This document shows, one piece after another, positions 1,034-49,907 of a stretch of 64,000 nucleotides of DNA. The stretch comes from an uncultured Thermomicrobiales bacterium. Its GTDB lineage: Bacteria; Chloroflexota; Chloroflexia; Thermomicrobiales; UBA6265. The notes beneath the pieces are model-generated. The model worked only from the letters and a program-made list of their open reading frames with translations, did not search any database and was not told the origin of the DNA. The stretch lies in contig CAXTHM010000014.1 in the NCBI GenBank assembly GCA_964244115.1, forward strand, positions 330 through 64,329, read 5' to 3'. A program made the position numbers and the translations under genes. Each line of letters opens with the position of its first letter. Position 1 is the stretch's first letter.

Positions 1034-1116
1034 GATTGAACCCGGAAGACCGGTTATCGCCCTGCGGGGCGATGGCGCCTGCGGGCGCCGGTCAGGGCAA
1101 GCCCGTGACCCTACGA
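1034..1116 (+). repeat. family-A GC-rich multi-hairpin intergenic repeat
   Basis: GATTGAACCCGGAA arm, then ATCGCCC-TGCG-GGGCGAT and GGCGCC-TGCG-GGCGCC hairpins, then GGTCAGGGCAAGCCCGTGACCCTAC. Recurs >=12 times in the window. Confidence 0.8.
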
Positions 1117-1164
1117 CATGACCGCCACCTTTCCGACGGGCAGGAGCGCTTGCGCGACATACGC

Positions 1165-1242
1165 AAGCCCCTCTCCGGGCGTGAGCGCCGTAGCGCGATA
1201 CGAGCCGGGGAGGGGTCTCACTTCGCTGGGGGAGGGGTCTGC
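1165..1242 (+). repeat. family-D ~78-bp repeat
   Basis: AAGCCCCTCTCCGGGCGTGAGCGCCGTAGCGCGATACGAGCCGGGGAGGGGTCTC...GGGGGAGGGGTCTGC. A near-identical reverse-complement copy lies at 17313-17390. Confidence 0.75.
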
Positions 1243-1290
1243 TCCGCAACAGACCTCTCCTCCTTTTGATCGCCCGTGTTGCCAGCACCG

Positions 1291-1350
1291 CCATCGCCCT
1301 GTGGGGCGATGGCGCCTGCGGGCGCCGGTCACCCCAAGGGGCGACCCTAC
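1291..1350 (+). repeat. family-A repeat (overlaps the MFS stop codon by 4 nt)
   Basis: CCATCGCCCTGTGGGGCGATGGCGCCTGCGGGCGCCGGTCACCCCAAGGGGCGACCCTAC. Confidence 0.8.
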
Positions 1351-2639
1351 ATCACCGTGCCGTCTCCATCCTCATCACCGTCGTCATCGATGATCGGGAT
1401 GTCCCGCAGCCGGCGGACGGACGAGAGGACGATCGGCAGGGCGGCCAGGGCCATCCCGGCGGCAGCGATGAACATCGTCTCCCGGACGGTGAGCACGAAC
1501 GGCAGCAGACCGGCCAGCAACGTCCCGAGTAGGTCGCCGCCGAACCGCGTCGTCCGCATGATCGCCTGGACCCGGCCCTGCCAGGCGTCGCCGGCGCTGG
1601 CCTGGACCAGACTCGTGTCGGCGATCTCGTAGACCGTCCACGAGACGTCCCCGACCACCTGCTGAGCGAGGATCAGGCCGAAGGCGAGCAGGCTGGCCTC
1701 GGTCGAGAGCGGCACCAGCAGGTTGGCCAGCGCCGCGACGACCAGCGCCGCCACCATCGCATTGCCGACCCCCAACCGCCGGGTGATCCGGCCCGCGAAG
1801 ACGGCCCCGGCCAGCGACGCCGCCCCGCCCAACCCGAACGCCAGACCGCTGATTCCCTCCGAGAAGCCGATCTCCTCGAGGACATAGAACACGTAGAGCG
1901 TCCCGAGCATGGTCCCGAACAGGTTGAACAGCAGCGCCGAGCCCAGCGTCGCCCGAAGCACGACGCTTCGGGCGACGTACCGAATGCCGTCGCGCAGCTC
2001 GGTCAGGATCGGCAGGTGCGCCCCGGCCGGTTTCGAGGTCGGCTCCGGTCTCGCGATCCGGGAGACGAACAGCGCCGACCAGATGAAGGTAAACGCGTTG
2101 ATGACGAACGTGAACGGGGCCGTCAGTGCCTGGACGAGGAAGCCGGCCGACCCGAACGCCACCGCTTCCGCGACGGCGCCGCTGCCGGTCAGTTTGCTGT
2201 TCGCCTCCGTCAGCGCCCCCCGTGAGACCAGCCACGGCAGGTGGGCCCGGTTGGCGACGTCGAACGATAGCGACAGGACACTGATCAGCGCGGCGAACGC
2301 GTAGAGCAGCGTCATGCTCAGGGAATCGAGCAGCGCCGCCAGCGGGATCGCCAACAAGACGACCGCCCGGGCCAGGTCCGTCGCGATCATGACCGGCCGG
2401 CGCCGGCGCCGGTCGACGAGGACGCCGATCAGCGGCCCGGCCAGGAACGCCGGGACGAGACCGCAGAGCCCGAGCAGGGACAACTGGAACGGGGTCGCAC
2501 CCAGATAACCGATCGCGAGGAACGACAGGGCCAGCCCGGTGACGAACGACCCGTAGGTCGAGATCGTCTGGGCAGCCCAGAGGCGGAGGAAATCAGGGTC
2601 TCGCCAGAGACCCCTCAGGAGGGATGACAGAGCGAACAC
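1347..2639 (-). CDS. MFS transporter (EntS/MFS_3-like exporter)
   Basis: 430 aa with about 12 predicted hydrophobic spans. N-terminus: LWRDPDFLRLWAAQTISTYGSFVTGLAL. Also a DRRRRRP loop between TM2 and TM3. Confidence 0.8.
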   Translation of the reverse strand: MFALSSLLRGLWRDPDFLRLWAAQTISTYGSFVTGLALSFLAIGYLGATPFQLSLLGLCGLVPAFLAGPLIGVLVDRRRRRPVMIATDLARAVVLLAIPLAALLDSLSMTLLYAFAALISVLSLSFDVANRAHLPWLVSRGALTEANSKLTGSGAVAEAVAFGSAGFLVQALTAPFTFVINAFTFIWSALFVSRIARPEPTSKPAGAHLPILTELRDGIRYVARSVVLRATLGSALLFNLFGTMLGTLYVFYVLEEIGFSEGISGLAFGLGGAASLAGAVFAGRITRRLGVGNAMVAALVVAALANLLVPLSTEASLLAFGLILAQQVVGDVSWTVYEIADTSLVQASAGDAWQGRVQAIMRTTRFGGDLLGTLLAGLLPFVLTVRETMFIAAAGMALAALPIVLSSVRRLRDIPIIDDDGDEDGDGTVM

Positions 2640-3151
2640 GGGGACAGACCTTTCCGGGACACGAACGACGGAGAGACGGCGTGAGCTGGTGCGTCCGATC
2701 GTCGACGAGGAGCAGTCCCATCCGTGTTCTCCGGTGTCCGTGCCGCGGCCCGGTCCGCCGATCTGGCGCCGTCCGCTGGCTGGCGTGGTGAGACGAGAGC
2801 GGCGCGCGCCGCGGCGCCCCGGCTGCCGAGAAGACGCCCCGGGCGTCCATCTGGTTCCCGGTCATCGGCTCGGCGAGGCGTCGATGTTATCGCGTGATGG
2901 GCGGTGCGATCGACCCGACCGTGTGCCAGCGTGCCCGACCCCCTCACCTCCCGACCGGTTGTTCACAGGCGAATCGGACGGCACCGGACCATCGATGGGA
3001 GATCGACCTGACCCATTCCAGCCCCAGCCGCAACGTGTCATGGCCTCGGCGCGGTCTCCACGGCACTGTTGTTGCCACGGGGACGGAGATGATCCTGCCC
3101 CGGACCCGGTTGCCAGACGCCCAATGGCCCTGACGGTCGCCGCAGGCGTGC

Positions 3152-4528
3152 GTGTCCGACTCCCCGCCTCAGCCCGGAAGGAGCCCTGTGTCCTCGACGT
3201 TCACGACCTGGTACATGATCGTCGGGGTGCTCTTCATCACGATGGCGCTGAGCGGCTCGATCCTGAAGCGGCTGCCACTGACGACCTCGATCCTCTACCT
3301 CCTGATCGGTCTGGCGCTCGGGTCGGCCGGGGCCGGGTTCATCGACCTCGACGTGATCGCCGATGCGGCCCTGCTCGAGCGGATCACCGAGATTGCGGCG
3401 ATCGTGTCGCTGTTCACCGCCGGGTTGAAGCTGCGGATCGACTGGAGCGACACCCGCTGGCGGATCCCGCTCCGGCTGGCCGTCGTCTCGATGGCGATCA
3501 CGGTCGGGCTGATCGCCATCGCCGGGTTCGTCGGGCTCGGGCTATCGCTGGGCGCGGCCGTCCTGCTCGGCGCCATCCTCGCCCCGACGGACCCGGTCCT
3601 GGCCGCCGAGGTCGCCGTCGACAGCCCGACGGACGAGGACCAGCTCCGGCTGGGGCTGACCGGCGAAGCCGGACTCAACGACGGGACCGCCTTCCCCTTC
3701 GTGATGCTCGGGCTCGGCCTGCTCGGGCTGCACGACCTCGGGTCGTTCGGCTGGCGCTGGCTGGCGGTCGATCTGGTCTGGGCGTCGCTGGGCGGCATCG
3801 CGGTCGGCGTGCTGCTCGGGACGCTGGTCGGCTCCCTGGTGCTCTACCTGCGCCGCGTGCACCGGGAGGCGGTCGGGCTGGACGAGTTCCTGACGCTGGG
3901 GCTGATCGCGATGTCGTACGGCGGCGCCCTGCTGATCCACACGTATGGCTTCCTCGCCGTCTTCGCGGCCGGGCTGGCGCTGCGCCGGGTCGAGCGGCGC
4001 CTGACCCCGGGCGACTTCGAGGAGGTGATCGAGGAGGTCGTCACGGGGCGCGAGGAGGACATCCAGACCCGGAGCGAGACCGCCCCGGCCCACATGCTGG
4101 CGGCCGTCCTCGGCTTCAACGAGCGGCTGGAGCGGATCGGCGAGCTGGCGGTCGTGCTCCTGATCGGTGGGCTGCTGTCCGTCGCGCTGCTGCCGGTCGA
4201 GGCGCTGTGGTTCGTCCCGCTCCTGTTCCTCGTCATCCGGCCGGTGAGCGTCTGGCTGGGGCTCCTGCGCGCCCCGACCACCCAGACCCAGCGGCACTAC
4301 ATCGCATGGTTCGGCATCCGCGGGGTCGGGGCGATCTACTACCTGACGTACGCGATCGAGCACGGGCTGTCGGACGGGGACGCCGAGGTGCTGACCGCCA
4401 TCGTCCTGACCGTCGTCGCGATCTCGATCGTCGTCCACGGGATCTCGGTCACGCCCCTGATGGCTCGCTACGAGCGGCAGGGCCGGTGGCGGGCCGCAGA
4501 GGGCGTCCGCATCCGGACCGATCCATGA
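3152..4528 (+). CDS. cation:proton antiporter (Na+/H+ exchanger family, CPA1-like)
   Basis: Polytopic membrane protein. Motifs LGAILAPTDPVLAAEV and GEAGLNDGTAFPF are typical of Na_H_Exchanger proteins. Non-ATG start in the track. Confidence 0.8.
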   Translation: MSDSPPQPGRSPVSSTFTTWYMIVGVLFITMALSGSILKRLPLTTSILYLLIGLALGSAGAGFIDLDVIADAALLERITEIAAIVSLFTAGLKLRIDWSDTRWRIPLRLAVVSMAITVGLIAIAGFVGLGLSLGAAVLLGAILAPTDPVLAAEVAVDSPTDEDQLRLGLTGEAGLNDGTAFPFVMLGLGLLGLHDLGSFGWRWLAVDLVWASLGGIAVGVLLGTLVGSLVLYLRRVHREAVGLDEFLTLGLIAMSYGGALLIHTYGFLAVFAAGLALRRVERRLTPGDFEEVIEEVVTGREEDIQTRSETAPAHMLAAVLGFNERLERIGELAVVLLIGGLLSVALLPVEALWFVPLLFLVIRPVSVWLGLLRAPTTQTQRHYIAWFGIRGVGAIYYLTYAIEHGLSDGDAEVLTAIVLTVVAISIVVHGISVTPLMARYERQGRWRAAEGVRIRTDP

Positions 4529-4850
4529 CGTCGGGACGACCGTGGGCTTCAGCGGAGGCCCCCGACATCAGGCCACGGAGGGGACCGTTCGCCGCCGACC
4601 TCGTCGCCAGGGCCACACGCCGCCGACCATTCACGGCCGAAGTCGCACCCCCGGAACGCCCCGGAACCGGGCACGTCACGACGAACGTGACGCTACAGCG
4701 CGGCTCATAGCGGTTGACGGGGGAGCGAGCGCCCTCTCTCTATCCGGTCCAGACAGAGTCGCCCGCAGGTGACGGAGGCTGACCGAGATGGGAAGGGGGC
4801 CGGGGGGTGGGGCTGGCCGCTCGCGACCGACAAGCTCCATGAGATCCGCT

Positions 4851-6374
4851 CTATGCCCTGGGCGCGATCGGCAGCCGGATCGTGACGCTGGTGCCGACGC
4901 CTTCCGTGCTGGCGACGCTGATCTCACCGTCGTGCTGCTCGACGAGCTGGCGGACGCCGGACAGGCCGATCCCGCTGCCGCTGATCCCATCGACGTTGCC
5001 GCCGCGGTGGAACCGCTCGAAGACGTGGGGCAGATCTACCGCCGGGATCCCGATGCCCTGGTCGCGGACGACGATCAGCGCCGGGCGTTCCCCCTCGCCG
5101 TCGCCGTCGACCACGACCGACACCTCACCCCCCTGCGGCGAGTACTTCATGGCATTGTTGACGACGTTGTCGATCACCCGGCGCAGGCGCGCCCGGTCCG
5201 CGTGGATCGTCACGGCCGCGCGGACATCGACCTGAACCTGCCGGCCCGGCGAGATCGCCCTGGCATTGGTGACCGTGACCGTGACCAGTTCGCCGAGATC
5301 GACGGTCTCGAGGTTGAGTTCGACGTGCTCACCGGCGCTCAGGTAGACCGTGTCGACCATCTCGTCGATGATCTGCATCATCTGGTCGGTGCCCTGCTCG
5401 ATCACCCGCAGCCCCCGATCGATCCGCCCCGCATCCAGCGTCCCGCGCTGGGCCCGGCGCATCATCAACTGGCCCTCCCCGCGGATGGCGGCAACCGGGT
5501 TGCGCAGGTCATGGGCGAGCGAATCCATGAACGTCTGCCGCTCGCGCTCCGATTCCAGCCGGGCGCTGATGTCCTCCAGGGCCAGCAGGATGCGGGGGGC
5601 CGCGACATCGCTGGATTCCAGGACACGGGCGTCGAGCTGGAACGTCCGGGAACCGAGCCGGGCGAAGTCATGCTGTACCCGCAGATCCTCGAACGGCGTC
5701 CGCTCCCGGATCACGGTCCGGAGCGCATCGATCAGATCGGGCTGGTTCCACTCCCCGTCGCCGAGCTCATCGATCGGCCGGCCGATCGTCTCGGCGTGCC
5801 AGACGGTGAAGGTCTGGTAGAACGCCCGGTTGGCGGAGACGACGCGCAGGTCGTGGTCGAGGACGAGGAGCGGCTCCCGGACGGAATCGACCGTCGCGTC
5901 GGCGTAGGCGCGGGCCCGCTGCAGGTCGATCAGCGCCCCGTGCAGCGTCATCTCCGCCGAGGCCGCCGCCGCGAGATCGCCGAGGATCAGGACGTCCTCG
6001 TCGGTCCAGTCCCGCGGTTCGGTGTCGATCGCGCAGAACGTCCCGAGGATGGTTCCGTCCATGGCTCGCATCGGGACACCGGCATAGGCCATGACGCCCA
6101 GTTCCGTCCGGGCAAGCCTCGTGTCGATGGCCGTCGCCAAACGGGTATCGGGGATGACCAGCGGTCTGCCCCGGGCGGCCGGGATCTGGCAGAGCGAGTG
6201 GGAGATCGGTGTCCAGCGCTGGCTCGCCCAGGGTTCACCCAGACCGTCGAGTCCGATGAACCGCTGGCGATCCGGTTCGATCACGGTGATCAGGGCGATC
6301 GGTACGCCGAGTGTTCGTCGGGCCAGCCGGGCCAGCCGGTCGAGCGCGATCTGGTGCGGTGTCATCGCGGGCAT
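4851..6374 (-). CDS. soluble sensor histidine kinase (GAF-PAS-HisKA-HATPase)
   Basis: GAF-like N-terminus. PAS: VREPLLVLDHDLRVVSANRAFYQTF. H-box: SLAHDLRNPVAAI. N-box: VIDNVVNNAMKYSP. G-boxes: DQGIGIP and GSGIGLSGV. No TM segment. Confidence 0.85.
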   Translation of the reverse strand: MPAMTPHQIALDRLARLARRTLGVPIALITVIEPDRQRFIGLDGLGEPWASQRWTPISHSLCQIPAARGRPLVIPDTRLATAIDTRLARTELGVMAYAGVPMRAMDGTILGTFCAIDTEPRDWTDEDVLILGDLAAAASAEMTLHGALIDLQRARAYADATVDSVREPLLVLDHDLRVVSANRAFYQTFTVWHAETIGRPIDELGDGEWNQPDLIDALRTVIRERTPFEDLRVQHDFARLGSRTFQLDARVLESSDVAAPRILLALEDISARLESERERQTFMDSLAHDLRNPVAAIRGEGQLMMRRAQRGTLDAGRIDRGLRVIEQGTDQMMQIIDEMVDTVYLSAGEHVELNLETVDLGELVTVTVTNARAISPGRQVQVDVRAAVTIHADRARLRRVIDNVVNNAMKYSPQGGEVSVVVDGDGEGERPALIVVRDQGIGIPAVDLPHVFERFHRGGNVDGISGSGIGLSGVRQLVEQHDGEISVASTEGVGTSVTIRLPIAPRA

Positions 6375-6675
6375 CGATCCTTCTGGGCGCTGGGCGTCAC
6401 GGTCGCCAGGATTGTAGTCATCCGGTCAGTCAGGCGCTATGCCTGGACGGACCGGCGCCTGGATCGTGTCGATCCTCGTGTCCGGCCCGATCGCGGGCCC
6501 CGATCCGTCGCCAGCCCATGCTCCGGCCAGCCAGAGGTCGGGCCGCTCGGGCCGCATCCGCCATCGACCGGCGGATCGGCGCGTGCGATACCCTTCTTCG
6601 AGCCGACCGTTCGATGTCGATCGTCCCGCCAGGCGGCGGGCACCGGCACCGACTCGATTGAGGGAGCACATCACC

Positions 6676-7662
6676 ATGGCAGGTATGACGTTCGGGGTCT
6701 TCCCCCCGCAGGGCTGGAAGATGGATCTGACCCAGATCGCGGACCCGGTCGAGCAGTTCGAGGCCATGACCAGCGTCGCGAAGGTGGCCGACGAGGGGCC
6801 GTGGGACAGCATCTGGGTGTTCGACCACTTCCACACCGTCCCGCACCCGACCATGAACACGGTCTTCGAGTCCTGGACGATCTCGGCGACGCTCGCCCGC
6901 GACACCAAGCGGGTCAACGTCGGCCAGATGGTCAACTGCAACGGCTACCGCAACCCCTCGCTGTTCGCCAAGATCGCCTCGACGGTCGACGTCGCCAGCC
7001 ACGGCCGGCTCTACGCCGGCTACGGTGCCGGCTGGTACGAGCACGAGTGGAAGGCGTACGGCTACGGCTTCCCCGAGACCCGCGACCGGATGCGGGCCTT
7101 CCGCGAGGGCGTCGAGATCATCCACAAGATGTGGACGGAGGACAAGCCGACCTTCACGGGCGAGTACTACACAATCGACGGGCCGATCAACGAGCCGAAG
7201 AGCGCGAAGCCGGGCCGCAAGATCCCCCTCTGGATCGGCGGCGGCGGCGAGAAGGTCACGCTCAAGCTGGTCGCCCAGTACGGTGACGCCTGCAACGTCG
7301 GCGGCGGCAACGCGGCCACGATCCGGGAGAAGCTGGAGATCCTGCAGGGGCACTGCGAGACGGTCGGCCGCGACTACGGCGAGATCGTCCGCTCGACCGG
7401 CTTCAACGTCTACCCGGTCGCGGCCGGCGAAGACCCGGTGACGAAGACGGCGACGCTGCGCGAGTCGATGGGCAACATGTCCTGGGAGGACTTCTCCAAG
7501 GACAACCACGTCGGCACGGTGGACGTCATCGCGGAGCGCATTCAGGCCGGAATCGAGGCCGGCGCCGACTACGGGATCATCTACATCCCCGGCCTGGCCT
7601 ACGACATCGACCTGCTCCACATGTTCGAGGAGGGCGTCATCGCCCCGCTCGCCAACAGCTGA
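6676..7662 (+). CDS. LLM-class (luciferase-like) F420/flavin-dependent oxidoreductase
   Basis: MAGMTFGVFPPQGW...DSIWVFDHFHTVPHP...GYGAGWYEHEWKAYGY...PLWIGGGGEKVTLKLVAQYGD. ATG at 6676 chosen inside track ORF 6439..7662; the upstream part is Arg/Pro junk. Confidence 0.8.
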   Translation: MAGMTFGVFPPQGWKMDLTQIADPVEQFEAMTSVAKVADEGPWDSIWVFDHFHTVPHPTMNTVFESWTISATLARDTKRVNVGQMVNCNGYRNPSLFAKIASTVDVASHGRLYAGYGAGWYEHEWKAYGYGFPETRDRMRAFREGVEIIHKMWTEDKPTFTGEYYTIDGPINEPKSAKPGRKIPLWIGGGGEKVTLKLVAQYGDACNVGGGNAATIREKLEILQGHCETVGRDYGEIVRSTGFNVYPVAAGEDPVTKTATLRESMGNMSWEDFSKDNHVGTVDVIAERIQAGIEAGADYGIIYIPGLAYDIDLLHMFEEGVIAPLANS

Positions 7663-7774
7663 CCGTGGCGGGTGCCATCGGCATCACGCTGACGTCGTCT
7701 CCACGAACAGGACCGCGGGAAATTCCCGCGGTCCTGTCTGGTTTTCCGGCTGTGACGGAATGTCGCGTGGGGCG

Positions 7775-8716
7775 CTACCGGCCCTTCAGCTCGCGGACGA
7801 TCGTGGCGAAGGTGTCGATGTCGGCCTCACGCACGGTGTAGTAGGTGATGCCGAAACGATCCCGGCTCGCCATGATCTTGGCGACCATCTCGTCGGCGCT
7901 GCCGATCATCGTGACCGGGCTGTCGCGGACCGTCTCGGCCGGGACGTCCCACGTCGTCGCCATCGTCTCGATCTCGGCCGCCGTCGCCGCCGCGCCGTCC
8001 GTCAGCGCGAACCGCTCCAGCAGGACATTGAACTCCAGCCCGTCGAACCGCTCCCCGGCGGCCTCGCGAATGAACGCGACCTTCTTGTCGAAGCCATCCG
8101 GCGAGCCGTCGTTGCGGTCGAAGCCGCTGCCGTCGTGCTTCGACTTCCAGATCAGCCCGATGATGTCGGCTTCCCGGGCGGCGAAGGAGAGGATCCGCGG
8201 ACCACCGCCGCCGAGGATCAGCGGCGGGTGCGGGCTCTGGACCGGCTTCGGGTTGGCCGGCAGTCCCTCGATCTGGTAATGCTTGCCGGCGAAGGTGACC
8301 GTCTCCTCGGTGAAGTACCGCTTGACGATGCCGACGCTCTCGATGAACTTCCCGACCCGGACCCCGGCGGCCTCGAACGGGATGCCCGTCTTGGTGTAGT
8401 CGGAGCCCAGCCAGCCGGCGCCGAGCCCAAGCTCCAGGCGCCCGTCGGTCAGCAGATCGACGGTGGCGGCGTCCTGCGCCAGGACGGCCGGGTGCCGGAA
8501 GTCGTTGTCCAGCACGTACGGGCAGAACCGCAGCGTCGTCGTCACGCTGGCGGCGGAGACGATCGCCGGGGACCAGGCGAAGACGTCGGTGAAGTGATCG
8601 ACCGTCGCGAGGACGTCATACCCGAGCGCCTCGGCCCGGCGCGCCTTGTCCTCCCAATCGGCCCGGGACTCCCCCCGCGCGATCTGCACCCCGAACCGGA
8701 ACGGTTTCACGGTCAT
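7775..8716 (-). CDS. LLM-class F420-dependent oxidoreductase
   Basis: MTVKPFRFGVQIARGES...LGYDVLATVDHF...GLGAGWLGSDYTKTGIPFE...PPLILGGGGPRILSFAARE. GAGGGAGA RBS lies 6-7 nt before the ATG at 8716. Confidence 0.8.
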   Translation of the reverse strand: MTVKPFRFGVQIARGESRADWEDKARRAEALGYDVLATVDHFTDVFAWSPAIVSAASVTTTLRFCPYVLDNDFRHPAVLAQDAATVDLLTDGRLELGLGAGWLGSDYTKTGIPFEAAGVRVGKFIESVGIVKRYFTEETVTFAGKHYQIEGLPANPKPVQSPHPPLILGGGGPRILSFAAREADIIGLIWKSKHDGSGFDRNDGSPDGFDKKVAFIREAAGERFDGLEFNVLLERFALTDGAAATAAEIETMATTWDVPAETVRDSPVTMIGSADEMVAKIMASRDRFGITYYTVREADIDTFATIVRELKGR

Positions 8717-8822
8717 ACGCTGTCTCCCTCGATCGACGCCCAAGGCCGGCCCGGATCATCACGGTGAATATGGTCGCACGGCCTACGCCATCTGACACCG
8801 GTCGGTCACGTCCCGTGCGTCT

Positions 8823-8930: not shown

Positions 8931-8942
8931 TGTCTGCGTTGA

Positions 8943-9144: not shown

Positions 9145-9163
9145 ATACGCCCAAGGCCACCAT

Positions 9164-9233: not shown

Positions 9234-9256
9234 CATGCGCAGGCCCGGCGTCATCG

Positions 9257-15979: not shown

Positions 15980-15998
15980 CGCCGCGGGAGAACCCACG

Positions 15999-42513: not shown

Positions 42514-42553
42514 CCGACCCCACCTCTACAAGGTTCGCCAGAAGCGGTGAATC

Positions 42554-42584
42554 CTGTAGGGTGGGGCAAGCCCCACCCTACGAA
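42554..42584. repeat. perfect hairpin related to the third arm of family A; likely terminator between the GNAT paralogs
   Basis: CTGTAGGGTGGGGCAAGCCCCACCCTACGAA (GTAGGGTGGGG / CCCCACCCTAC stem). Confidence 0.6.
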
Positions 42585-42671
42585 CCGTCGTCCCCACTGA
42601 ACGGCTTCGGTCAGCTCGGCCACCACGCAACCCCAACATATACCTCACCCCCACACAAACGGAGTCCCTAC

Positions 42672-43937
42672 ATGACCACCCAGACGTATCCGCCCCCGGT
42701 CGTCGAGGGCACGCCCGACCCACGGATCTTCAGCGGCGAGGGACAGGCGTTCCTCGTCGGTGAGACGATCTTCCTGCGTGGGCTGGAAGAGGAGGACGCC
42801 GTCCGCGCCAGCGCCTGGCACGACTCGCCCTACCCGATCAACGCCGAGCGGGCCAGCAAGATCATCAGGGAGCTGACCGAGAAGCCCAGGCCGGGCAACC
42901 GCTTCCTCGTCGCCTGCCGCCGCAGCGATGGCGAACCCGTCGGTTCCCTCGCCCTGCGGCGCTGGGCCGGCAATGAGCCCGACAATCGCCTGGGACTCTG
43001 GGCCGACCCGGCCCGGCCGGAGAGCGAGCGGATCAGGGCCGAGATGCTCGGGCTGATGGTGGGATGGGGCTTCGGCGAGGCCGAACTGCCGAAGATCGTG
43101 CTCGAGTTCGATGACGGTCAGGCGCCGCTGCGGGGACGGGCCGAGGCACTCGGGATGCGCCGCGCCGCCCTGTGGCGGGACGGCGTCTGGCGCGACGGGC
43201 AGTGGCGCGACCGCGTGCTGTACGAAGGGTTGCACCCGGCCTGGCTCCGGCGCCTCGGCGACCCCGGCCGCGGGATCGACCACGCGATAGGCGTGGACGA
43301 CCCGATCCGCTGGCGCCCACGACAGTTCCCGACGTACGGCACCGTCGACGGCGACCCGCCGATCAACGCCGTCATGGTCGGCCCACGGGTCTACCTCCGG
43401 CCGATCGAGATGCGGGACGCGGCTCCATCGGTCGCGATGGAGCGTCGCGAACCCGAGACGTTCATGGACAACGGGCGCTTCCCCTGGTCCGCCGCCGGGG
43501 CACGGCAGTTCGTGCGGGACAACGCGAAATCCGACCCGCCCGGGTGGGTCCAGTTCGCCGTCTGCCTGCGGGAGGACGGCCGGCACATTGGGACCAACGG
43601 GATCTGCGCCATCGACCGGCTCAACCTGACGGCCGAGACGGAGTCCTGGTTCCATGACCCGGCCTACCGCAATAAGGGCTACGGCTCCGAGGCCAAGCAA
43701 CTCCTGCTCGCCTACGCCTTCGAGCGCCTCGGTCTCCACTCCGTCCACAGCCATGTCTGGGGACCCAACACGCGCTCGGCCGCGGCGCTCCGCAAGCAGG
43801 GCTACCGCGAGTGCGGCCGGCTGGTCTGGCAAGGGACGAAGCACGGCGAGTACACCCACGCCTACCTGTTCGACTTCCTCGCCGACGAGTGGCGCGAGAT
43901 GACCGCCCGGGCCAGCGCCGCGGCTGGGAACGCGTAG
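42672..43937 (+). CDS. double-GNAT (RimJ/RimL-like) N-acetyltransferase, paralog 2
   Basis: Alignable end to end with 41239..42513. Identical runs include NAVMVGPRVYLRPIEM, GYGSEAKQLLLAYAFERLGLHSV and WGPNTRSAAALRKQGYRECGR. Confidence 0.75.
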   Translation: MTTQTYPPPVVEGTPDPRIFSGEGQAFLVGETIFLRGLEEEDAVRASAWHDSPYPINAERASKIIRELTEKPRPGNRFLVACRRSDGEPVGSLALRRWAGNEPDNRLGLWADPARPESERIRAEMLGLMVGWGFGEAELPKIVLEFDDGQAPLRGRAEALGMRRAALWRDGVWRDGQWRDRVLYEGLHPAWLRRLGDPGRGIDHAIGVDDPIRWRPRQFPTYGTVDGDPPINAVMVGPRVYLRPIEMRDAAPSVAMERREPETFMDNGRFPWSAAGARQFVRDNAKSDPPGWVQFAVCLREDGRHIGTNGICAIDRLNLTAETESWFHDPAYRNKGYGSEAKQLLLAYAFERLGLHSVHSHVWGPNTRSAAALRKQGYRECGRLVWQGTKHGEYTHAYLFDFLADEWREMTARASAAAGNA

Positions 43938-44211
43938 GACCGTCTCCGGTCGCTCAGCTGGCGGACGCCGTGGCGAGCGACGGGAGACGGATTCCCCCTC
44001 TTCGATATGACGCTGATCCATGCCCGAGCCGCCGTGACCGCGGCGCTGGGTGACGAGACGGCATAGCCAGACACCTGCAGGTGTCGCCGAACCGGAACGA
44101 CTTGCCTGTGGCATCATCCCCCATGCCCTATCGCGTCCGGCGGCGGGGCGGTCGGTACCACGCGGTGCGCCGAGACGACCGCCGGACCGGCCCAGCAGAG
44201 GAGGAGTCATC

Positions 44212-45330
44212 GTGGAGCCTGTGCGCGTCGGCGTCGTCGGTACCGGAAACATCAGCAGCATCTACCTCGAGAACTCGCACAAGTTCCGTGAGTACGAGGT
44301 CGTCGCCGTCGCCGACATCCTCCAGGACCGTGCCCAGGAGCAGGCCGACAAGTTCGGCATCCCCCGCGCCCTGTCGGTCGATGAGCTGATCGTCGATCCG
44401 GAAGTCGAGCTCGTCCTCAACCTGACGATCCCGGCCGCCCACGCCGGGATCGCGATCCGGTCGCTGCAGGCCGGCAAGGTCGCCTACGGCGAGAAGCCGT
44501 TCGCGACCAACCGCGAGGATGGCCAGGCGATCCTCGACGCCGCCGCGGCCGCCGGCCTGGTCGTCGGCTGCGCCCCGGACACCTTCCTCGGCGCCGGCAT
44601 CCAGACGGTGCGCCACGCGATCGACTCCGGCCGGATCGGGACGCCGCACTCCGCGATGTGCGTGATGGCCGGCCCCGGCCCGGCCGTCTGGCACCCGGAC
44701 CCCGGCTTCTTCTTCCAGCCCGGCGGTGGACCGGTGCTGGACATGGGCCCGTACTACATCACCAACCTCGTCACCCTGCTCGGCCCGATCAAGCGGGTCT
44801 CCGCCAAGGGCTTCTCGCCCGGCAAGGAGCGCACGATCGGCATGGGGCCGAAGGCCGGCCAGACGATCCCGGTCGACATCCTGACGACGGTCTCGGCCCA
44901 GCTCGAGCTGGAGAGCGGCGTCCTCGCGACCCTGTTCATGAGCTGGGACGTCTGGGGCACGGAGAACACCAACGTCGAGATCTACGGGGAGGACGGCGCC
45001 CTCTCCGGCTGGGACCCGAACACCTTCCACGGCCCGATCAGGTTCCGGAACGCCGACAGCACCGAGCGCGACGTCTGGGAAGAACTCGACCTCGTCAGCC
45101 CGCACGACGGCAATTCCCGCGGCCTCGGACTTGCCGACATCGCGGTCGCCCACCGGACCGGCGTCGCCCCACGCGCCAGTGGCACCCTCGCCTTCCATGT
45201 CCTCGACGTCATGCTGAGCATCATCGAGTCAGCCGAGCAGGACCGCCCGGTCGAGATCGGCAGCCGGGCCGAGCGGCCGGAAGCCCTGCCGGCCGGGCTC
45301 GCCAACTGGACCGTGACGCTGGACCAGTAA
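44212..45330 (+). CDS. Gfo/Idh/MocA family NAD(P)-dependent oxidoreductase
   Basis: VRVGVVGTGNISSIYL Rossmann, AYGEKPFA. GTG start at 44212 preceded by GAGGAGGA; the track ORF starts earlier. Confidence 0.8.
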   Translation: MEPVRVGVVGTGNISSIYLENSHKFREYEVVAVADILQDRAQEQADKFGIPRALSVDELIVDPEVELVLNLTIPAAHAGIAIRSLQAGKVAYGEKPFATNREDGQAILDAAAAAGLVVGCAPDTFLGAGIQTVRHAIDSGRIGTPHSAMCVMAGPGPAVWHPDPGFFFQPGGGPVLDMGPYYITNLVTLLGPIKRVSAKGFSPGKERTIGMGPKAGQTIPVDILTTVSAQLELESGVLATLFMSWDVWGTENTNVEIYGEDGALSGWDPNTFHGPIRFRNADSTERDVWEELDLVSPHDGNSRGLGLADIAVAHRTGVAPRASGTLAFHVLDVMLSIIESAEQDRPVEIGSRAERPEALPAGLANWTVTLDQ

Positions 45331-45357
45331 CCAGGAACGAGGCAACCAGTTCGTGAG

Positions 45358-45391
45358 GAGAGCCCGCCTGACACTGGTCAGGCGGGCTCTC
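45358..45391 (+). terminator. 15-bp perfect stem hairpin after the oxidoreductase gene
   Basis: GAGAGCCCGCCTGAC-ACTG-GTCAGGCGGGCTCTC. Confidence 0.55.
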
Positions 45392-45507
45392 GCTACGCCC
45401 TTGCGAGTTGGGGCTCCAGCCTCTCGACTTAGTCCGGGCAGTACCGATGAGCCTGGGGTCAACCCGGGGAGACGATATACTGGCGGGTAGACGAGGGAGG
45501 TGCCGAG

Positions 45508-45810
45508 ATGACCCAGACGCGTCCTGCCACCAGCTTACAGGCCACACGATCCCTGACGATCGAGACGGACGGCGACACGCAGATCATCCGTCTGCCATCC
45601 GACATCCATTTCGACGGGGATACGGTCATGCTCCGTCAGGATCAGGCGACGGGGGATGTCATCCTCTCGCAGCGCCCGAAGGCGAAGACCTGGGATGAAT
45701 TGTTCGCCATCCTCGATGAACTCGGACCGATGCCCGACGACTTCATGGCGGATCGACCGATGAATGGACCCATCGACCCACGCGGCGTGTTCGACGACGA
45801 GTTCCCATGA
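45508..45810 (+). CDS. vapB: VapB-type (AbrB/VagC-like) antitoxin
   Basis: TQIIRLPSDIHFDGDTVMLRQDQATGDVILS, C-terminal ...DFMADRP. ATGA overlap with the PIN gene. Confidence 0.7.
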   Translation: MTQTRPATSLQATRSLTIETDGDTQIIRLPSDIHFDGDTVMLRQDQATGDVILSQRPKAKTWDELFAILDELGPMPDDFMADRPMNGPIDPRGVFDDEFP

Positions 45811-46229
45811 CGCTTCGCTACATGCTCGATACCGACATCGCCAGCTACGTCGTCAAGGAGCGTCCGCCAGAGTTCCGAAGGCGGATGGATGCCATGCCCC
45901 TTGGTGAAGCCTGCGTCTCGGCGATCACTCGGGCAGAGCTGTTGTACGGCCTGGTTGGGTTCCCCGTTGACCATCGATTGCATGTGGGCACTGCTGCGTT
46001 TCTCGAATCGGTCGTGATCCTCGACTGGCCGACATCAGCTGCGGAGAGGTTCGCCGGGATCAAGCACGACCTGGTATCGACCGGTCAGCGAATCGGTGAG
46101 ATGGACCTGCTGATCGCCGCCCATGCGCTGGACGCCGGCCTGCCGCTGGTGACAGGGAACGTCCGGCACCACGGGCGCGTTCCGGGGCTGGAAGTCATCG
46201 ACTGGCGAGACGCTCCTAACGAGGGCTGA
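45807..46229 (+). CDS. vapC: VapC PIN-domain toxin
   Basis: YMLDTDIASYVVK, ITRAELLYG, DLLIAAHALDAGLPLVTGNVRHH. Confidence 0.85.
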   Translation: MTLRYMLDTDIASYVVKERPPEFRRRMDAMPLGEACVSAITRAELLYGLVGFPVDHRLHVGTAAFLESVVILDWPTSAAERFAGIKHDLVSTGQRIGEMDLLIAAHALDAGLPLVTGNVRHHGRVPGLEVIDWRDAPNEG

Positions 46230-46431
46230 TCAGACCGGCCGCACATCGGTCGTGCCGCCGGCGTCATGCCCCATCCGGGTCGCCGCAGCGTCCGTCGCCG
46301 CCCGGCTTGACGGTGGTGCGTGTGAGCACTGGGCGGCCCAACGCGGCCGGTATGAGACGATCGGGACCGTTACCCGGTGAGGCAGCGACGCACGCTGGTC
46401 ACCCCCGGACTCGCCAACGAGCAGCGACATC

Positions 46432-47331
46432 TCACGATCGGATCCGGCCCGGACTGACCCACTCGACCCCACGACGTTCCACCGGCGGCCCTGGCATCGG
46501 CATCGGGTCGAACTCGACCTCCTGCCAGGTGAACCGGGAGCGGTAGCGCTCCAGCAGCCGGACGATCGGCCCACCCAACGCGACCACGAGGACGACGTTG
46601 GCGATGGCGCGGGTGAGGTCGTGGGGCAGCGAGGTGATCAGATAGAAGCGGACGTACGTCGTGAGCGTCTCCGTGAACGACATCCCCGGCACCCACGACA
46701 GGCTGGTCGCGTACTCGACCCCGGGCGCGGTGAACGGCCAGAAGGACAGGTTGAGCAGCGCGCCGTAGAGGAGCCCCCAGGCGGCACCGAAGCCGGCCAG
46801 CAGCGCCAGCCGCCGCCGGGGGTGTCCGTCCAGCCGGGGCAGCAGCCCCGCCGTCAGCCCGACCCAGCCCGCGCCGAGCATCTGGTACGGCAACCACGGC
46901 CCCACGCCGCCTGTCAGCAGCGCCGAGATCAGCAGCGACAGCGCTCCGAGCTGGAAGCCGATCGCGCCACCGAAGACCGCGCCGACGAGGATGATCAGCA
47001 GGAAGACCGGCGAGGCGCCCAGGAACGTCGGCAGCAGCCGCAGGGTCGCGTTGACCGCGACCAGCACCCCGAGCAGCGCCACGATCCGGGCCGGCCGGAC
47101 GTCTCCGGCGGAGAGTTCCCCGAGGATGGCGAGCAGGCACAGCCCGGTCACGATCGCGAGGATGAACGGGGCGGCCCGCGTCGCGCTGCTGACCCCGTCG
47201 ATGCCGAGGGCCGGCAGCAGGAACGGCCAGAGGTAGCCGAGGAGCCCGATCAGGCTGGCGACCCCGATCGCCAGCCGGGCGGGGATCGCGGTCGCTCCGG
47301 GCCGGGAACGGATCGAGAACGGGCGTATCAT
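46432..47331 (-). CDS. polytopic membrane protein, ECF-transporter S-component-like
   Basis: Six or more hydrophobic spans with G/A-rich helices (LLIILVGAVFGGAIGFQLGALSLLISALLTGGVGPW). No EcfA/EcfT partner in the window. Family assignment is tentative. Confidence 0.5.
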   Translation of the reverse strand: MIRPFSIRSRPGATAIPARLAIGVASLIGLLGYLWPFLLPALGIDGVSSATRAAPFILAIVTGLCLLAILGELSAGDVRPARIVALLGVLVAVNATLRLLPTFLGASPVFLLIILVGAVFGGAIGFQLGALSLLISALLTGGVGPWLPYQMLGAGWVGLTAGLLPRLDGHPRRRLALLAGFGAAWGLLYGALLNLSFWPFTAPGVEYATSLSWVPGMSFTETLTTYVRFYLITSLPHDLTRAIANVVLVVALGGPIVRLLERYRSRFTWQEVEFDPMPMPGPPVERRGVEWVSPGRIRS

Positions 47332-47946
47332 CGGGGGAACCCTCGAACGGCAGCGGCAACGGATACCGCTACGCTCAACCGCGTTGCCGGGACTCGACGG
47401 CCGGCGCTATTCCCGCTCTGGTCACTCGCGGAGCCGAAGCCGGTTCAGCGGGTGAGCAAGCAGGTGCCCCGAGCAGAGGGCGGGAGGAGGTCTGCCCTCC
47501 CACCAGAACGCCTCGATCACAACCGGTTCACGTCCGAAGACTACACGCTACCGTCCAACCCGCCCGGACTGACGACCCTATCGTCGGGCATCGTCGGGAT
47601 CACCGGAGCCAGAGGCCCTTGGGGCTCGACAGGTATCAGCGACCGCTCTGCTCCAGCCGATACCAGACGGCGTCAAGTGAACCATCTACCTTTTGTACAG
47701 AGCGCACAGTGATACATCCAAGACGCGTCCCGCACCCATCACATCGGCCGTATAGGATCACGTAAACTGCGCAGACTCAACAACAGCCAGGCGAAACCCG
47801 GCGTCCATTCGTTGGGCGGATCGGTAGATGCCGGGCTGTTCGCACAGGTCAGGACAACGGAGGCGGATCGCAGCGACGCGTCGGGCTCTCACGTTCGTGG
47901 GTCGGTTGCCGGTGGATCGCCGGGCACATGAGAGGACGAGCGCGGG

Positions 47947-49488
47947 ATGGCTGCCGAGATCACCCTTGCCGACCTGCTGGCCTGGGTACCGCGACTGCGG
48001 CTGCCGGCCCAGGGCGAACCGGTGCTGGCCGGGGACACGGGCGGGGCGCGACCAGGGTTGCGGGGGATCGCTCCGGTCACCTCACTGGACCGGGAACTGA
48101 CCTGGGCGGTCACCGTCCGGGCGAGCAGCCCGATGCTCCCACCGCTCCGGGGCGGCGAACTCGTCCTGCTGCCCCGGCGGGTGCTGGCCGAGTCCGGCGT
48201 CTCGCTGCCCCTGCTGCTCCGGGAACTCTCGAGCCACCAGTGCTCGGGCGTGGTCCTGGACGGCGTCCCAAGCGGGACGGCGCCCCTGCCACTGCTCGTG
48301 ACCACGTCGGTCGGACCGGAGTTCGAGAACGAGATCAACCGGTTGCTGACCCAGCGCCGGGGTGAACTCTACCGCTCCGGCACCGAACTCGAGCACCTGC
48401 TGAGCGACCTCGCCAACTCCGGCGCCGAGGCCTCGCAGGCGCTGACGGCGGTCGCCGGACAACTCGGCGTCCCGCTGGCGATCACGGACCCGCGCGGCCA
48501 GGTGATGATGACGACCGCGCCGGAGCCGGCGATCCCGGCGACGGTCCCGGCACCACGCGGCTGGCAGCAGGACCGGCTGGCGCTGGCGCTGTCGGACGGC
48601 CGGTCGCTCTGGGTCGGGCCGGTCCCCCGGGCCACCCGGGCGCTGATCCGGCTGGTCGGCGAGCGGGTGGCGACGGCGGTCGATTCGGCCCTGCTCCGGG
48701 CGTCGCAGGCCCGGCCGCGCGGTCCGGCGCGGTCGATGGCACTCCAGTCGCTGGTCGTCGGCGCGATCTCGGACCCACTGACCCGTGCCTCCGCCCTCGG
48801 CCTGCCGACGGACGGCCACTTCCGGGTGGCGCTCGCCAGCACCGAGGCCGGGACCGCCGGGCTGATCCGCTCGCTCGGTCCGCTCGGCACCGTCCATGAC
48901 GGCACGACGCTGGACGGTCTCCCGCTCGGGCTGATCGAGGTCCGCCCGGAGCCGGTGGCGTCCGGCGCCAGCCGCGGTCGGGGCAGCCAGCGCGAGAGCC
49001 GACCGGTCTACCGGTCGCCATCGGTGACCGTCCCGCCGACGCAGGGCTGGTTGGCGGTCTCCGGAACGGTGGCCGGGGTCGCCGGGCTGCCCGACGCCCT
49101 CCGGGAGGCGCGGTTCGTCGCGGCGCTGCTTCAGCACGAGGTCATCCCCGGTCCCCTCGCCCGGTTCGACGTCGTCGACGATCTGGGCGCCTACCGGTTG
49201 CTCTATCGACTCTGGGGGACGATCGACCTGGCCCGGTTCGCGGCCGACACGCTCGGGGAGCTGCCGTTCCGCGACAAGAAGGGGTCGCTCCGGCAAACGC
49301 TCCTCGTCTACCTGGAGACGGGCGGCTCGCACGTCGACGCCGCCGACCGGCTCGGCATCCACCGCAACACGCTGGCCTACCGGCTCAAGCAGATCGGGCT
49401 GCTGACGGGCCGGAACCCGACCGAGCCCGGCTGCCGCCTCGTCCTGCACCTCGCCCTCCTCGCGACCGCTTTGCCCGCCGCGCCGTAG
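47947..49488 (+). CDS. PucR-family transcriptional regulator
   Basis: C-terminal PucR HTH: LRQTLLVYLETGGSHVDAADRLGIHRNTLAYRLKQIGLLTG. Confidence 0.8.
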   Translation: MAAEITLADLLAWVPRLRLPAQGEPVLAGDTGGARPGLRGIAPVTSLDRELTWAVTVRASSPMLPPLRGGELVLLPRRVLAESGVSLPLLLRELSSHQCSGVVLDGVPSGTAPLPLLVTTSVGPEFENEINRLLTQRRGELYRSGTELEHLLSDLANSGAEASQALTAVAGQLGVPLAITDPRGQVMMTTAPEPAIPATVPAPRGWQQDRLALALSDGRSLWVGPVPRATRALIRLVGERVATAVDSALLRASQARPRGPARSMALQSLVVGAISDPLTRASALGLPTDGHFRVALASTEAGTAGLIRSLGPLGTVHDGTTLDGLPLGLIEVRPEPVASGASRGRGSQRESRPVYRSPSVTVPPTQGWLAVSGTVAGVAGLPDALREARFVAALLQHEVIPGPLARFDVVDDLGAYRLLYRLWGTIDLARFAADTLGELPFRDKKGSLRQTLLVYLETGGSHVDAADRLGIHRNTLAYRLKQIGLLTGRNPTEPGCRLVLHLALLATALPAAP

Positions 49489-49580
49489 CTGGCAGGTGCT
49501 CATTGGACTGGCCGCGCTCACCCAGGAGCAGCGGCAGTCCGTCACGTCGGGGTGACAGCTCTCGCATCGCTGGCCTCGTT

Positions 49581-49730
49581 CGGCCGCCGTTGCGGCCCAT
49601 GACGTCGGGGCGACGGCCCGCCCTGCCCGGCCGCCGCAGCGGCCCGTCATGTAGAGACGAAGCCTGTAAGCCAGGCCGCCGCAGCGGCCGTCGCCCCGCC
49701 GGGCGACGACTGGCGCACCGGGTTCAACCC
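49581..49730 (-). repeat. family-A repeats (about 1.5 divergent copies)
   Basis: ...GTAGAGACGAAGCCTGTAAGCCAGGCCGCCGCAGCGGCCGTCGCCCCGCCGGGCGACGACTGGCGCACCGGGTTCAACCC. Confidence 0.65.
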
Positions 49731-49825
49731 TCGTCGATCATGCCCGGTAGTGCGCTATTCGGTTTCCCGACCTGGCCGTTGCATCGAGAGACGGCGTCGC
49801 CGACCTGCGTGGTTCGTTCGCAGAC

Positions 49826-49907
49826 GGTTGAACCCAGTGCGCGGTTATCGCCCTGGGGGGGCGATGGTCGCTGCGGCGACCGGTCAGGGCAAGCCCGTGA
49901 CCCTAGG
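49826..49907 (+). repeat. family-A repeat
   Basis: GGTTGAACCCAGTGCGCGGTTATCGCCCTGGGGGGGCGATGGTCGCTGCGGCGACCGGTCAGGGCAAGCCCGTGACCCTAGG. Confidence 0.8.

Follow-up and report, generated by a model that had tools for sequence, protein, structure and literature searches.

What kind of element is the multi-hairpin repeat that lies between the genes of a 64-kb stretch of Thermomicrobiales DNA, and how has it spread? The stretch (64,000 nt; contig CAXTHM010000014.1, positions 330–64,329), referred to here as the window, comes from an uncultured bacterium of the phylum Chloroflexota, and the repeat is called Family A. An earlier note, made from the letters of the window, had described Family A as a lineage-specific family that behaves like repetitive extragenic palindromes (REPs), bacterial interspersed mosaic elements (BIMEs), or the ERIC and Correia elements. 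Our analysis bears out the comparison with REPs. It is very probable that Family A consists of GTAG-tagged REPs, paired in this lineage with a single-copy-type HUH/Y1 REP-associated tyrosine transposase (RAYT, or TnpA-REP), because the units carry a GTAG tag and covarying stems, are placed downstream of genes, lack target-site duplications, and flank a RAYT gene as inverted copies in related genomes. The sequence family is new, but its kind, that of GTAG REPs partnered by a RAYT, is known already.

The window contains 10 units of Family A, 65–85 nt long, and three or four part-copies. They were identified with a profile hidden Markov model (HMM) built from all copies claimed in the earlier note, turned to one orientation, and the nhmmer E-values of the 10 units range from 4e-23 to 2e-11. 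Every copy location proposed in that note was matched, and copies are far more frequent than expected by chance; the dispersed repeat is real. Repeat detection recovered Family A as the direct families D7, D8, D10 and D12 and the inverted families I3–I14. The base composition of the window is about 70% G+C throughout. The 18-nt palindrome of hairpin 3 (HP3), ATCGCCCCGCAGGGCGAT, had 12 matches with up to 3 mismatches, compared to 0.33 expected, and none of 100 dinucleotide-preserving shuffles reached 12; the pattern of hairpin 2 (HP2) had 24 matches compared to 3.1 expected.

Family A is lineage-specific, as had been proposed. A diagnostic 23-mer spanning the HP2–HP3 junction was present in one of 185,579 species-representative genomes, the two-chromosome Thermomicrobiales metagenome-assembled genome (MAG) OZ244595/6, where it marks 16 sites, and in 81 metagenome stretches from one assembly set (JAABUN, JAABUS, JAABUR), which gave 146 HMM hits. 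The 16 loci of the MAG hold 32 units or part-units. The window, with 4 exact 23-mers in 64 kb compared to 16 in the 4.25 Mb of the MAG, is unusually dense. A blastn search of 72,556 plasmids, including the megaplasmid of Thermomicrobium roseum, gave no significant match to the unit; matches at E 0.05 to 10 in Streptomyces, Rhizobium and others were set aside as chance similarities of GC-rich sequence.

Read in the orientation of the GTAG tag, the unit is composed of a head (T)YC-GTAGGG, HP1, CC-HP2, HP3, HP4, and CAAYC. HP2 has the form GGCGCC, GGCCGC or GGTCGC, followed by CGCA and the complement. HP3 is either long (ATCGCCC-CGCA-GGGCGAT) or short (TTCGCC-GYCA-GGCGAR). HP2 and HP3 are near-invariant hairpins of 6–7 bp with CGCA loops (the loop is CGCA in 74 of 97 HP2 copies). 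HP4 is a bulged fourth hairpin, AACCGG-NNNN-CCGG(G)TT, which together with the TTCAAYC tail is present in about a third of the copies (~30%). In contrast, HP1 is a variable module with at least five sequence types, some of them with long loops, which combine as a mosaic with the types of HP2 and HP3. The GC-rich arm ending in CCCTAC, which had been taken for a third arm, is actually the 5' head of the unit, GTAGGG plus the variable hairpin. Among 194 hits pooled from the window and the related loci, 50 are full length, 113 end after HP3, 13 are part-copies made of head, HP1 and HP2 and typically located just 5' of a complete unit, and 11 are headless.

The four hairpins are preserved by compensatory changes. 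The 43 best copies from the window and the related loci were aligned with a covariance model (CM; R1) of four hand-specified helices; such an alignment leans towards the specified structure, and hence shuffled and slid controls are given alongside. Standard pairs occupy 88.2% of the cells, compared to 76.9% in column shuffles, none of 500 of which reached the observed value, and to 28–44% when the partners were moved by 1–3 columns. Both sides are changed in 76 cells, whereas 22.5 were expected, and the covariation score is 0.200 compared to 0.065 for the control. Pairing amounts to 98.8% in HP2, which comes in essentially two compensated sequence types, to 91% in the outer stem of HP1, with T-A or G-C as alternatives, to 89% in HP3, and to 77% in HP4, each of whose 6 pairs has double changes. 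Positions 1–4 of the GTAG head are kept in 42, 40, 39 and 43 of the 43 copies, and the preceding C in 34. RNAalifold recovered only HP2 and part of HP3 from a plain MAFFT alignment, because the length variants of HP1 and HP3 were misaligned. Folded as DNA, the single unit 40955–41038 is moderately better than shuffles (z = -2.5), and the inverted pair 17436–17518/17566–17643 forms one long hairpin (z = -7.1). An alternative fold, in which GGGGCGA of the head pairs with the 5' arm of HP3, was rejected as a feature of the family, since heads of type b (GGGTCA) cannot form it.

The earlier note had suggested looking for a RAYT beyond the window, and five related genomes or contigs were found to carry a RAYT-type gene flanked by Family A. 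With E. coli RayT as the tblastn query, one weak match was obtained, located exactly between two inverted units in the MAG (locus L001). The protein encoded by the open reading frame (ORF) at 3641–4162(-) of L001 has 174 residues and contains the motifs HVH and YILENP. With 31.3 bits, it exceeds the Pfam Y1_Tnp cut-off of 23; among NCBIfam models, it is matched best by REP_Tyr_transpos (REP-associated tyrosine transposase; E 6.6e-16), and the IS200 model gives 32 bits. The protein is about 24% identical to E. coli RayT. Residues H87, H89, Y157 and N161 (the HUH motif, the catalytic tyrosine, and the asparagine at Tyr+4) are invariant in an alignment that includes E. coli RayT. The asparagine at Tyr+4 aligns to N119 of E. 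coli TnpA-REP, which is essential (PMC6006769). An AlphaFold model calculated with 42 homologues has a pLDDT of 87.6, and the top 30 matches in a search of PDB structures were all Y1 transposases. The highest query TM-score (0.58) and the lowest root-mean-square deviation belonged to 4ER8, the E. coli RAYT bound to a REP hairpin (TM 0.58/0.60, 3.5 Å, 147 columns).

The homologues closest to the L001 protein form a clade with 55–79% identity, each encoded on a single contig, beyond which identity drops to about 45%. Four of them (55–68% identity) were placed on contigs L018, L020, L021 and L022, where all are bracketed by Family A units with GTAG outward. A RAYT gene between inverted Family A units with GTAG outward is the arrangement known as a REPtron. 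The comparison of RAYT flanks covers these four contigs and L001; homologues P0002 and P0006 were left out. The RAYT-type proteins at the REPtron loci are 164–178 residues long. In L001, L018 and L021, thus in three of the five loci, a unit with long HP3 is located on the 5' flank of the RAYT gene and a unit with short HP3 on the 3' flank. The flanking units of L020 and L022 overlap a stop codon. In L018 (9808–9932) and L020 (10530–10640), the GTAG-plus-HP1 module (GTAGCGGCGAAGCTTGCGAGCCATCTCC) is repeated two to three times in tandem before a complete unit, and the module can perhaps be amplified independently of the rest. The gene order around RAYT is common to L018 and L020 (Bmp-ABC transporter, RAYT, CNNM) and suggests vertical inheritance at a fixed locus, which is usual for RAYTs. 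Plasmids contain only distant homologues of the protein (at most 35% identity), and there is none on the T. roseum megaplasmid.

The placement of Family A relative to genes is strongly biased. We analysed 147 head-bearing copies from all loci, using a crude gene caller based on third-position G+C, and only 6 of them lie inside predicted genes. In 80 of 98 cases (82%), the GTAG head points to the 3' end of a gene, and in 18 to a 5' end (p 1.7e-10); the median distance from the stop codon to GTAG is 85 nt. Of the intergenic positions of the copies, 48 are convergent, 58 tandem and 2 divergent, the background counts being 87, 360 and 89 (p 1e-11). Where two units lie no more than 400 nt apart, GTAG is outside in 21 cases and inside in none, and 3 pairs are tandem; 96 units are single. 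The inverted doublets span 200–260 nt and have identical outer ends, CGTTYC-GTAGGG and CCCTAC-GRAACG. No target-site duplications were detected at the flanks of 26 doublets, where the best direct repeat is at most 3 nt and not above a shifted control.

The established biochemistry of IS200/IS605 elements (IS608 and ISDra2 TnpA) and of E. coli TnpA-REP suggests how the partnership may work. RAYT would bind GTAG and the adjacent hairpin when the GTAG strand is single-stranded, and would cut and rejoin DNA without target duplications. Its activity may seed, amplify or remove units in trans. Because the units are located just downstream of genes with a fixed polarity, GTAG towards the stop codon, they are probably also transcribed into 3' untranslated regions (UTRs), which is a second proposal that does not exclude mobilisation by RAYT. 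In a 3' UTR, these very stable GC-rich hairpins could block 3' exonucleases or help to end transcription. The units are not canonical intrinsic terminators, because no T-run follows them: the sequence after HP3 is AACCGG and that after HP4 is TTCAACC, not the hairpin followed by a T-run that defines an intrinsic terminator.

Several observations weigh against the assignment of Family A to GTAG REPs with a RAYT partner. The unit, with its length of 65–85 nt and three or four covarying hairpins, is two to three times as long as a classical REP of 20–40 bp; only the GTAG-plus-HP1 module is of REP size, and part-copies and tandem arrays of that module exist. The GTAG-proximal hairpin is the most variable and the distal hairpins are the most conserved, which is a misfit with the simple model of a RAYT that reads the GTAG-proximal hairpin. 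The spacers of the doublets are unrelated in sequence and contain no conserved linker. The L001 protein scores 58.5 bits on REP_Tyr_transpos, which is under the equivalog cut-off of 80. RAYT was seen only in relatives; the window itself contains none by tblastn, as had been stated before, and the partnership in its own genome is extrapolated from them. G-T mismatches on the GTAG strand number 34 and A-C mismatches 21 (p 0.10), which gives no real support for a role at the level of RNA. No unit is followed by a T-run, and none of the 7 units and part-copies in positions 1–20000 is among the terminator-like sites.

The last two observations bear equally on the strongest competing explanation, that the units are primarily RNA elements of host 3' UTRs, terminators or stabilisers of mRNA, which spread by recombination or selection and whose link to a transposase is incidental. 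We regard this as a distinct possibility, albeit not the one to be expected. The bias of orientation and position downstream of genes is as it predicts, the hairpins are very stable, their stems are kept by compensatory change, and many REPs act as RNA in the view of Di Nocera et al. (PMC3733652). However, T-runs are absent from the units while the window has a canonical terminator-like site at 7707–7737, the excess of G-T over A-C mismatches is not significant, and the inverted partner of each doublet in a tandem-gene region is antisense to transcription. Moreover, it is hard to call incidental a RAYT that is flanked by Family A units at five independent loci. A function in 3' UTRs is compatible with the REP/RAYT explanation and not exclusive of it. 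The terminator-like site, 7707–7737(+), has a 14-bp stem followed by CTGGTTTTCC after gene 6439–7662, so this genome uses ordinary terminators alongside the REP hairpins.

The doublets are made preferentially from units of two types. Classified by HP3, 12 of the typed doublets combine long and short, 2 are long and long, and none are short and short (p 0.005). Units with short HP3 are in doublets in 15 of 21 cases, compared to 25 of 98 units with long HP3 (p 2e-4), where the number of long-HP3 singles is inflated because the loci were picked by the long-HP3 23-mer. We speculate, with considerable doubt, that the inverted doublets are transposase-less miniatures of REPtrons, with distinct left (long-HP3) and right (short-HP3) ends, which are mobilised as a whole by single-strand "peel and paste". 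HP2 and HP3 would then be the parts read by RAYT or a host factor, and at resident sites the GTAG-proximal hairpin would be exchanged. The two ends would parallel the left and right ends (LE and RE) of IS200/IS605 elements, and Family A would be a modular REP with an architecture of its own, in a phylum that branches deeply. The lack of spacer conservation leaves movement as a doublet unproven.

The conservation of HP2 and HP3 may alternatively reflect recognition as double-stranded DNA. The units would then be sites of a host DNA-binding protein, formed by the HP2 and HP3 palindromes and the palindrome GGTTCAACC, which we consider unlikely. The conservation of HP2 and HP3 exceeds what pairing needs, as HP2 with its 98.8% pairing has about two sequence types, and the tail GGTTSAACC is a palindrome in double-stranded form. 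The BIMEs of E. coli, which bind IHF, gyrase and Pol I, provide a precedent. Nevertheless, the conservation is equally explained by recent amplification from a few master copies, and the compensatory changes in the stems favour extrusion of hairpins over recognition of a duplex.

Two further explanations are very improbable. Miniature inverted-repeat transposable elements of the Correia or ERIC type, derived from an insertion sequence with a DDE transposase and moved by cut-and-paste, are superficially resembled by the doublets with their identical outer ends. The earlier note had kept these elements among its options, and they are disfavoured by the missing target-site duplications at the doublet flanks, by the predominance of singles (96 compared to 24 pairs), by the mutually unrelated spacers, and by the fact that the sole transposase gene found bounded by units encodes a Y1/HUH enzyme. 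Structured small RNA genes, or a family of riboswitches, attenuators or other cis-regulatory RNAs, would account for the covariation of four helices and for the conserved loops, CGCA in most copies of HP2. However, Rfam covariance models gave no matches at gathering scores in the whole window and none even at E ≤1 over 17280–17700, the copies occur in both orientations, as tandem part-copies and downstream of unrelated genes, their modules assort as a mosaic, and no conserved promoter or terminator is attached to them. A CRISPR array was dropped for lack of regular spacers, an integron attC array in view of the two orientations of the copies and the absence of cassette arrays and of a GTTRRRY core, and chance GC-rich palindromes on the results of the shuffles.

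Family A has been turning over since the species diverged. Locus L015 of the MAG is syntenic with positions 10–2291 of the window at 77–85% identity. It contains an orthologous copy of unit 1031–1116, with different, compensated variants of HP1 and HP2, whereas unit 1288–1352 is missing at the orthologous site, where the C-terminus encoded by the L015 gene is different. Positions 42811–58518 of the window are syntenic with contig L103 (81–88% identity), which has a doublet after a small gene, whereas there is none at the orthologous window site 43921–44106. In the doublet common to L103 and the window (49602–49907), the types of HP1 differ, whereas HP2 and HP3 agree. These differences are presence/absence and replacement polymorphisms. 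Exact insertion boundaries were not obtained from the filled and empty orthologous sites of L015 and L103, because the intergenic flanks are too diverged (80–88% identity).

The copies in the window and their parts are listed in the table.

Table. Family A units, part-copies and related hairpins in the 64-kb window. HP, hairpin; HMM and CM, detected by the profile hidden Markov model and the covariance model.
Position	Strand	Feature	Parts and setting	Evidence
1031–1116	-	Full unit: GTAG head, HP1 type b (GGGTCACGGGCTTGCCCTGACC), HP2 GGCGCC-CGCA-GGCGCC	Long HP3 ATCGCCC-CGCA-GGGCGAT, HP4, TTCAATC tail; between MFS gene and sigma-factor gene, both minus strand	nhmmer E 1.2e-21; CM 90.1 bits
1288–1352	-	Unit from head to HP3, no tail; compensated HP1 variant GGTCGCCCC/GGGGTGACC	GTAG (1347–1350) supplies the TAG stop codon of MFS gene 1347–2639(-)	nhmmer E 5.6e-13
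8822–8861	+	Part-copy: head, HP1 and HP2 only	Directly 5' of unit 8868–8934	nhmmer E 1.2e-6, model positions 2–41; CM 33 bits
8868–8934	+	Unit: HP1 type c (GGGGCGTGGGCTTGCCCCCCGCCC), short HP3 (ATCGCTGCCAGGCGAT)	Left doublet member, GTAG outward	HMM, CM
9158–9224	-	Unit: HP1 type a, degenerate long HP3	Right doublet member; begins 33 nt past stop codon of luciferase-like gene 9257–10192(-)	HMM, CM
17436–17518	+	Full unit, good reference copy	GTAG 17438–17441, HP2 17461–17476, HP3 17477–17494, HP4 17495–17511; 157 nt past stop codon of aminotransferase gene	CM 100.9 bits
17566–17643	-	Full unit, short HP3 (TTCGCCGCCAGGCGA)	Inverted partner of 17436–17518, in convergent intergenic region; 58 nt past stop codon of gene 17701–18153(-)	HMM, CM
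35596–35664	+	Unit without tail	Begins 30 nt past stop codon of ORF 34415–35566(+); last 3 nt of match overlap first possible start codon (35662) of JAB-domain gene	HMM
40955–41038	+	Full unit, best score; degenerate head GTCG (40957–40960)	HP1 40961–40979, HP2 40980–40995, HP3 40996–41013, HP4 41014–41030, CAACC tail 41031–41035	nhmmer E 4.2e-23; CM 103.1 bits
42556–42583		Perfect 28-nt palindrome GTAGGGTGGGGCAAGCCCCACCCTAC, head and hairpin only, REP-like	43 nt past stop codon of GNAT gene	Sequence read
49582–49597	+	Solo HP2-like hairpin GGCCGC-CGTT-GCGGCC		Sequence read
49602–49644	+	Degenerate part-copy: head, HP1, HP2	Exact HP2 pattern at 49627–49644	nhmmer E = 2 (weak)
49649–49731	+	Full unit, compensated HP3 (GTCGCCC-CGCC-GGGCGAC)	Left doublet member; 161 nt past stop codon of gene 47947–49488(+)	HMM, CM
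49823–49907	-	Full unit, head CTAG, HP2 GGTCGC-CGCA-GCGACC (compensated T-A pair)	Right doublet member	HMM, CM

Family A had been called strictly intergenic, with several copies starting within a few nucleotides of a stop codon. The first statement holds for the interiors of genes: with coding-like ORFs told from shadow ORFs by the G+C content of third codon positions in this 70% G+C genome, no copy in the window lies within a coding-like ORF. It does not hold at their edges, where one copy overlaps the stop codon of the MFS gene and another the first possible start codon of the JAB-domain gene. The second statement was too generous, as 1 unit touches a stop codon, 2 begin 30–33 nt after one, and the others are 58–450 nt away. 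Two of the earlier assignments also had to be changed. The site at 42554–42584, interpreted as a third arm only, is a self-contained perfect palindrome and not a fragment of a full unit. It was not detected by the full-unit HMM or CM, its kinship with Family A is through the head only, and it is possibly a minimal REP-like element without HP2–HP4 that belongs to a simpler REP family. The single copy proposed at 49581–49730 contains one full unit, preceded by a solo HP2-like hairpin and a degenerate part-copy; the arrangement of HP2 plus unit at 49582–49731 is kept in L103. The genes flanking the window units are all ordinary and encode a sigma factor, an MFS transporter, luciferase-like oxidoreductases, an aminotransferase, a JAB-domain protein, a Clp-type AAA ATPase and GNAT acetyltransferases.

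The short gaps within two pairs of tandem paralogues hold REP units or the palindrome. The GNAT acetyltransferase paralogues at 41101–42513 and ~42540–43937 have 71–87% DNA identity with a spacing of 1433 nt, and the luciferase-like oxidoreductase paralogues at 7775–8743 and 9257–10192 have 72% DNA identity. An 83-nt element with the internal hairpin CCCCTCCCCGG...CCGGAGAGGGG is present twice in the window, at 17308–17390(+) and 1165–1247(-), with 93% identity. Each copy is located about 45 nt 5' of a Family A unit, and the linking sequence is not conserved; the related loci contain one 26-nt fragment of the element only (L002 5006–5031).

A second, unrelated family of intergenic hairpin repeats lacks the GTAG head (repeat families D6, D17, I2, I12, I17–I20 and I23). 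It has the sequence GCCGGGCGGCTTTAGCGCCCGGT, is flanked by the conserved CTGAGCCGGGTCGCTTTAGCGCCCGG...GGGGTGAT, and is found in both orientations. Its sites are 20801–20838, 20929–20973, 27310–27343, 27383–27458, 27519–27587, 27616–27704, 27702–27770, 33048–33104, 33164–33232 and 33247–33294, with clusters at about 27.3–27.8 kb and 33.0–33.3 kb. The 1014-residue ORF 50356–53400 contains an 18-nt in-frame tandem repeat, (ACCGCGACCGAGGAACCG)n, at 52411–52500, which encodes a Thr/Glu/Pro-rich linker; a large ORF beside RAYT in L001 has a similar PT/TEP-rich linker. Outside the lineage, a query of seven concatenated head-plus-HP1 variants matched 38 places in the 860-kb plasmid-collection sequence NZ_AP023416.1 of Vescimonas fastidiosa. 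The matches cover query positions 119–181 and run through the variant GTAGGGGCGATCCCTTGCGGTCGCCC and the adjacent palindrome variant GTAGGGTGGGG, which suggests that a similar GTAG-type REP family may be present in this unrelated bacterium.

Family A adds a well-documented REP/RAYT pair from Thermomicrobiales (Chloroflexota); to our knowledge, nearly all detailed work on REPs and RAYTs concerns Gammaproteobacteria. The long modular unit, with a hypervariable proximal hairpin and invariant distal hairpins, is useful for the study of substrate choice by RAYT and of REP turnover, as are the two-type doublets mirrored at the RAYT flanks of three of five loci and the copy that supplies the stop codon of a gene. 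In practice, assemblies of such genomes will be broken by the repeats, and both gene calling and the prediction of terminators will be confused; the covariance model can be used to mask the repeats. The general view of REPs is unchanged by Family A, which a specialist will find tidy rather than surprising.

The REPs of more than 80 species were sorted into the GTAG and CGTC superfamilies by Di Nocera et al. (2013, PMC3733652), who described compensatory subfamilies, tandem or convergent location, REPtrons, and dimers with GTAG outside, 20–100 bp apart, as the preferred form. The downstream placement of Family A, its doublets, its flanking of RAYT and its turnover are familiar from GTAG REPs and REPtrons (PMC3733652, PMC6006769). 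Family A shares with them a 5' GTAG, unpaired, beside an imperfect hairpin, many intergenic copies downstream of genes and few in divergent regions, the occurrence as singles and as inverted dimers with GTAG outside, and compensatory subfamilies. As in REPtrons, inverted REPs flank a Y1 transposase gene, and there are no target duplications. Unlike GTAG REPs, Family A has a unit of 65–85 nt with 3–4 hairpins instead of one palindrome of 20–40 bp, and its GTAG-proximal hairpin is variable, whereas the two distal hairpins with CGCA loops are near-invariant. REPs of E. coli and Pseudomonas with RAYT/TnpA-REP were reportedly described by Nunvar in 2010 and Ton-Hoang in 2012; in contrast to their REPtrons, the host of Family A is of the Thermomicrobiales type (Chloroflexota) and the RAYT is divergent.

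The nearest catalogued relative of Family A, compared by its description and the megaplasmid only, is GTAG-23 of T. roseum. This family is present in both replicons of T. roseum and in Roseiflexus castenholzii, and consists of short units that cluster as large blocks at a small number of loci, inserted within small CCGSSCC(n3–4)GGSSCGG palindromes; the T. roseum megaplasmid NC_011961 has 42 reported elements (PMC3733652). Both families belong to the GTAG superfamily and have GC-rich two-replicon hosts of the order Thermomicrobiales, and the small GC-rich palindromes of GTAG-23 recall HP2. Unlike GTAG-23, described as forming large blocks, Family A is dispersed as singles and doublets and has a long unit of fixed modular order. 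Neither the composite unit nor seven HP1 variants had a blastn match on NC_011961, and its first 50 kb contain no Family A unit. In the REP literature on Thermomicrobiales, we found nothing beyond GTAG-23. The possibility, raised in the earlier note, that the copies belong to a catalogued element therefore applies to the kind, since GTAG-tagged REPs including GTAG-23 were catalogued in 2013 (PMC3733652), and not to the sequence, as neither Rfam nor the T. roseum megaplasmid had a match to the composite of Family A.

Family A resembles the BIMEs of E. coli in its mosaic build, in the inverted alternation of two unit types (long and short HP3), which pair heterotypically in 12 of 14 typed doublets, and in the attachment of extra conserved motifs. 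Unlike BIMEs, it has spacers without conserved motifs, and forms doublets only and no long alternating arrays. Like REPINs (Bertels and Rainey 2011), the inverted doublets can fold into one long hairpin and go with a RAYT of apparently vertical inheritance, whose locus is syntenic in L018 and L020. In contrast to REPINs, most units are single (96 compared to 24 pairs), the arms of a doublet are of different types, and conservation does not extend to the spacer; it is therefore not evident that the doublet is what replicates. Family A falls outside the definitions of a REPIN, a DDE-type miniature element, an intrinsic terminator, and any Rfam family. The composites of P. putida and P. fluorescens ("double palindromic TIRs", where TIR denotes a terminal inverted repeat) combine a degenerate GTAG REP with unrelated stem-loops, occur in hundreds of copies, and flank a transposase gene (PMC3733652). 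Family A likewise joins a GTAG REP to stem-loops and flanks a tyrosine transposase gene, and differs from these composites in its sequences and phylum, its intact head, and its two or three added hairpins.

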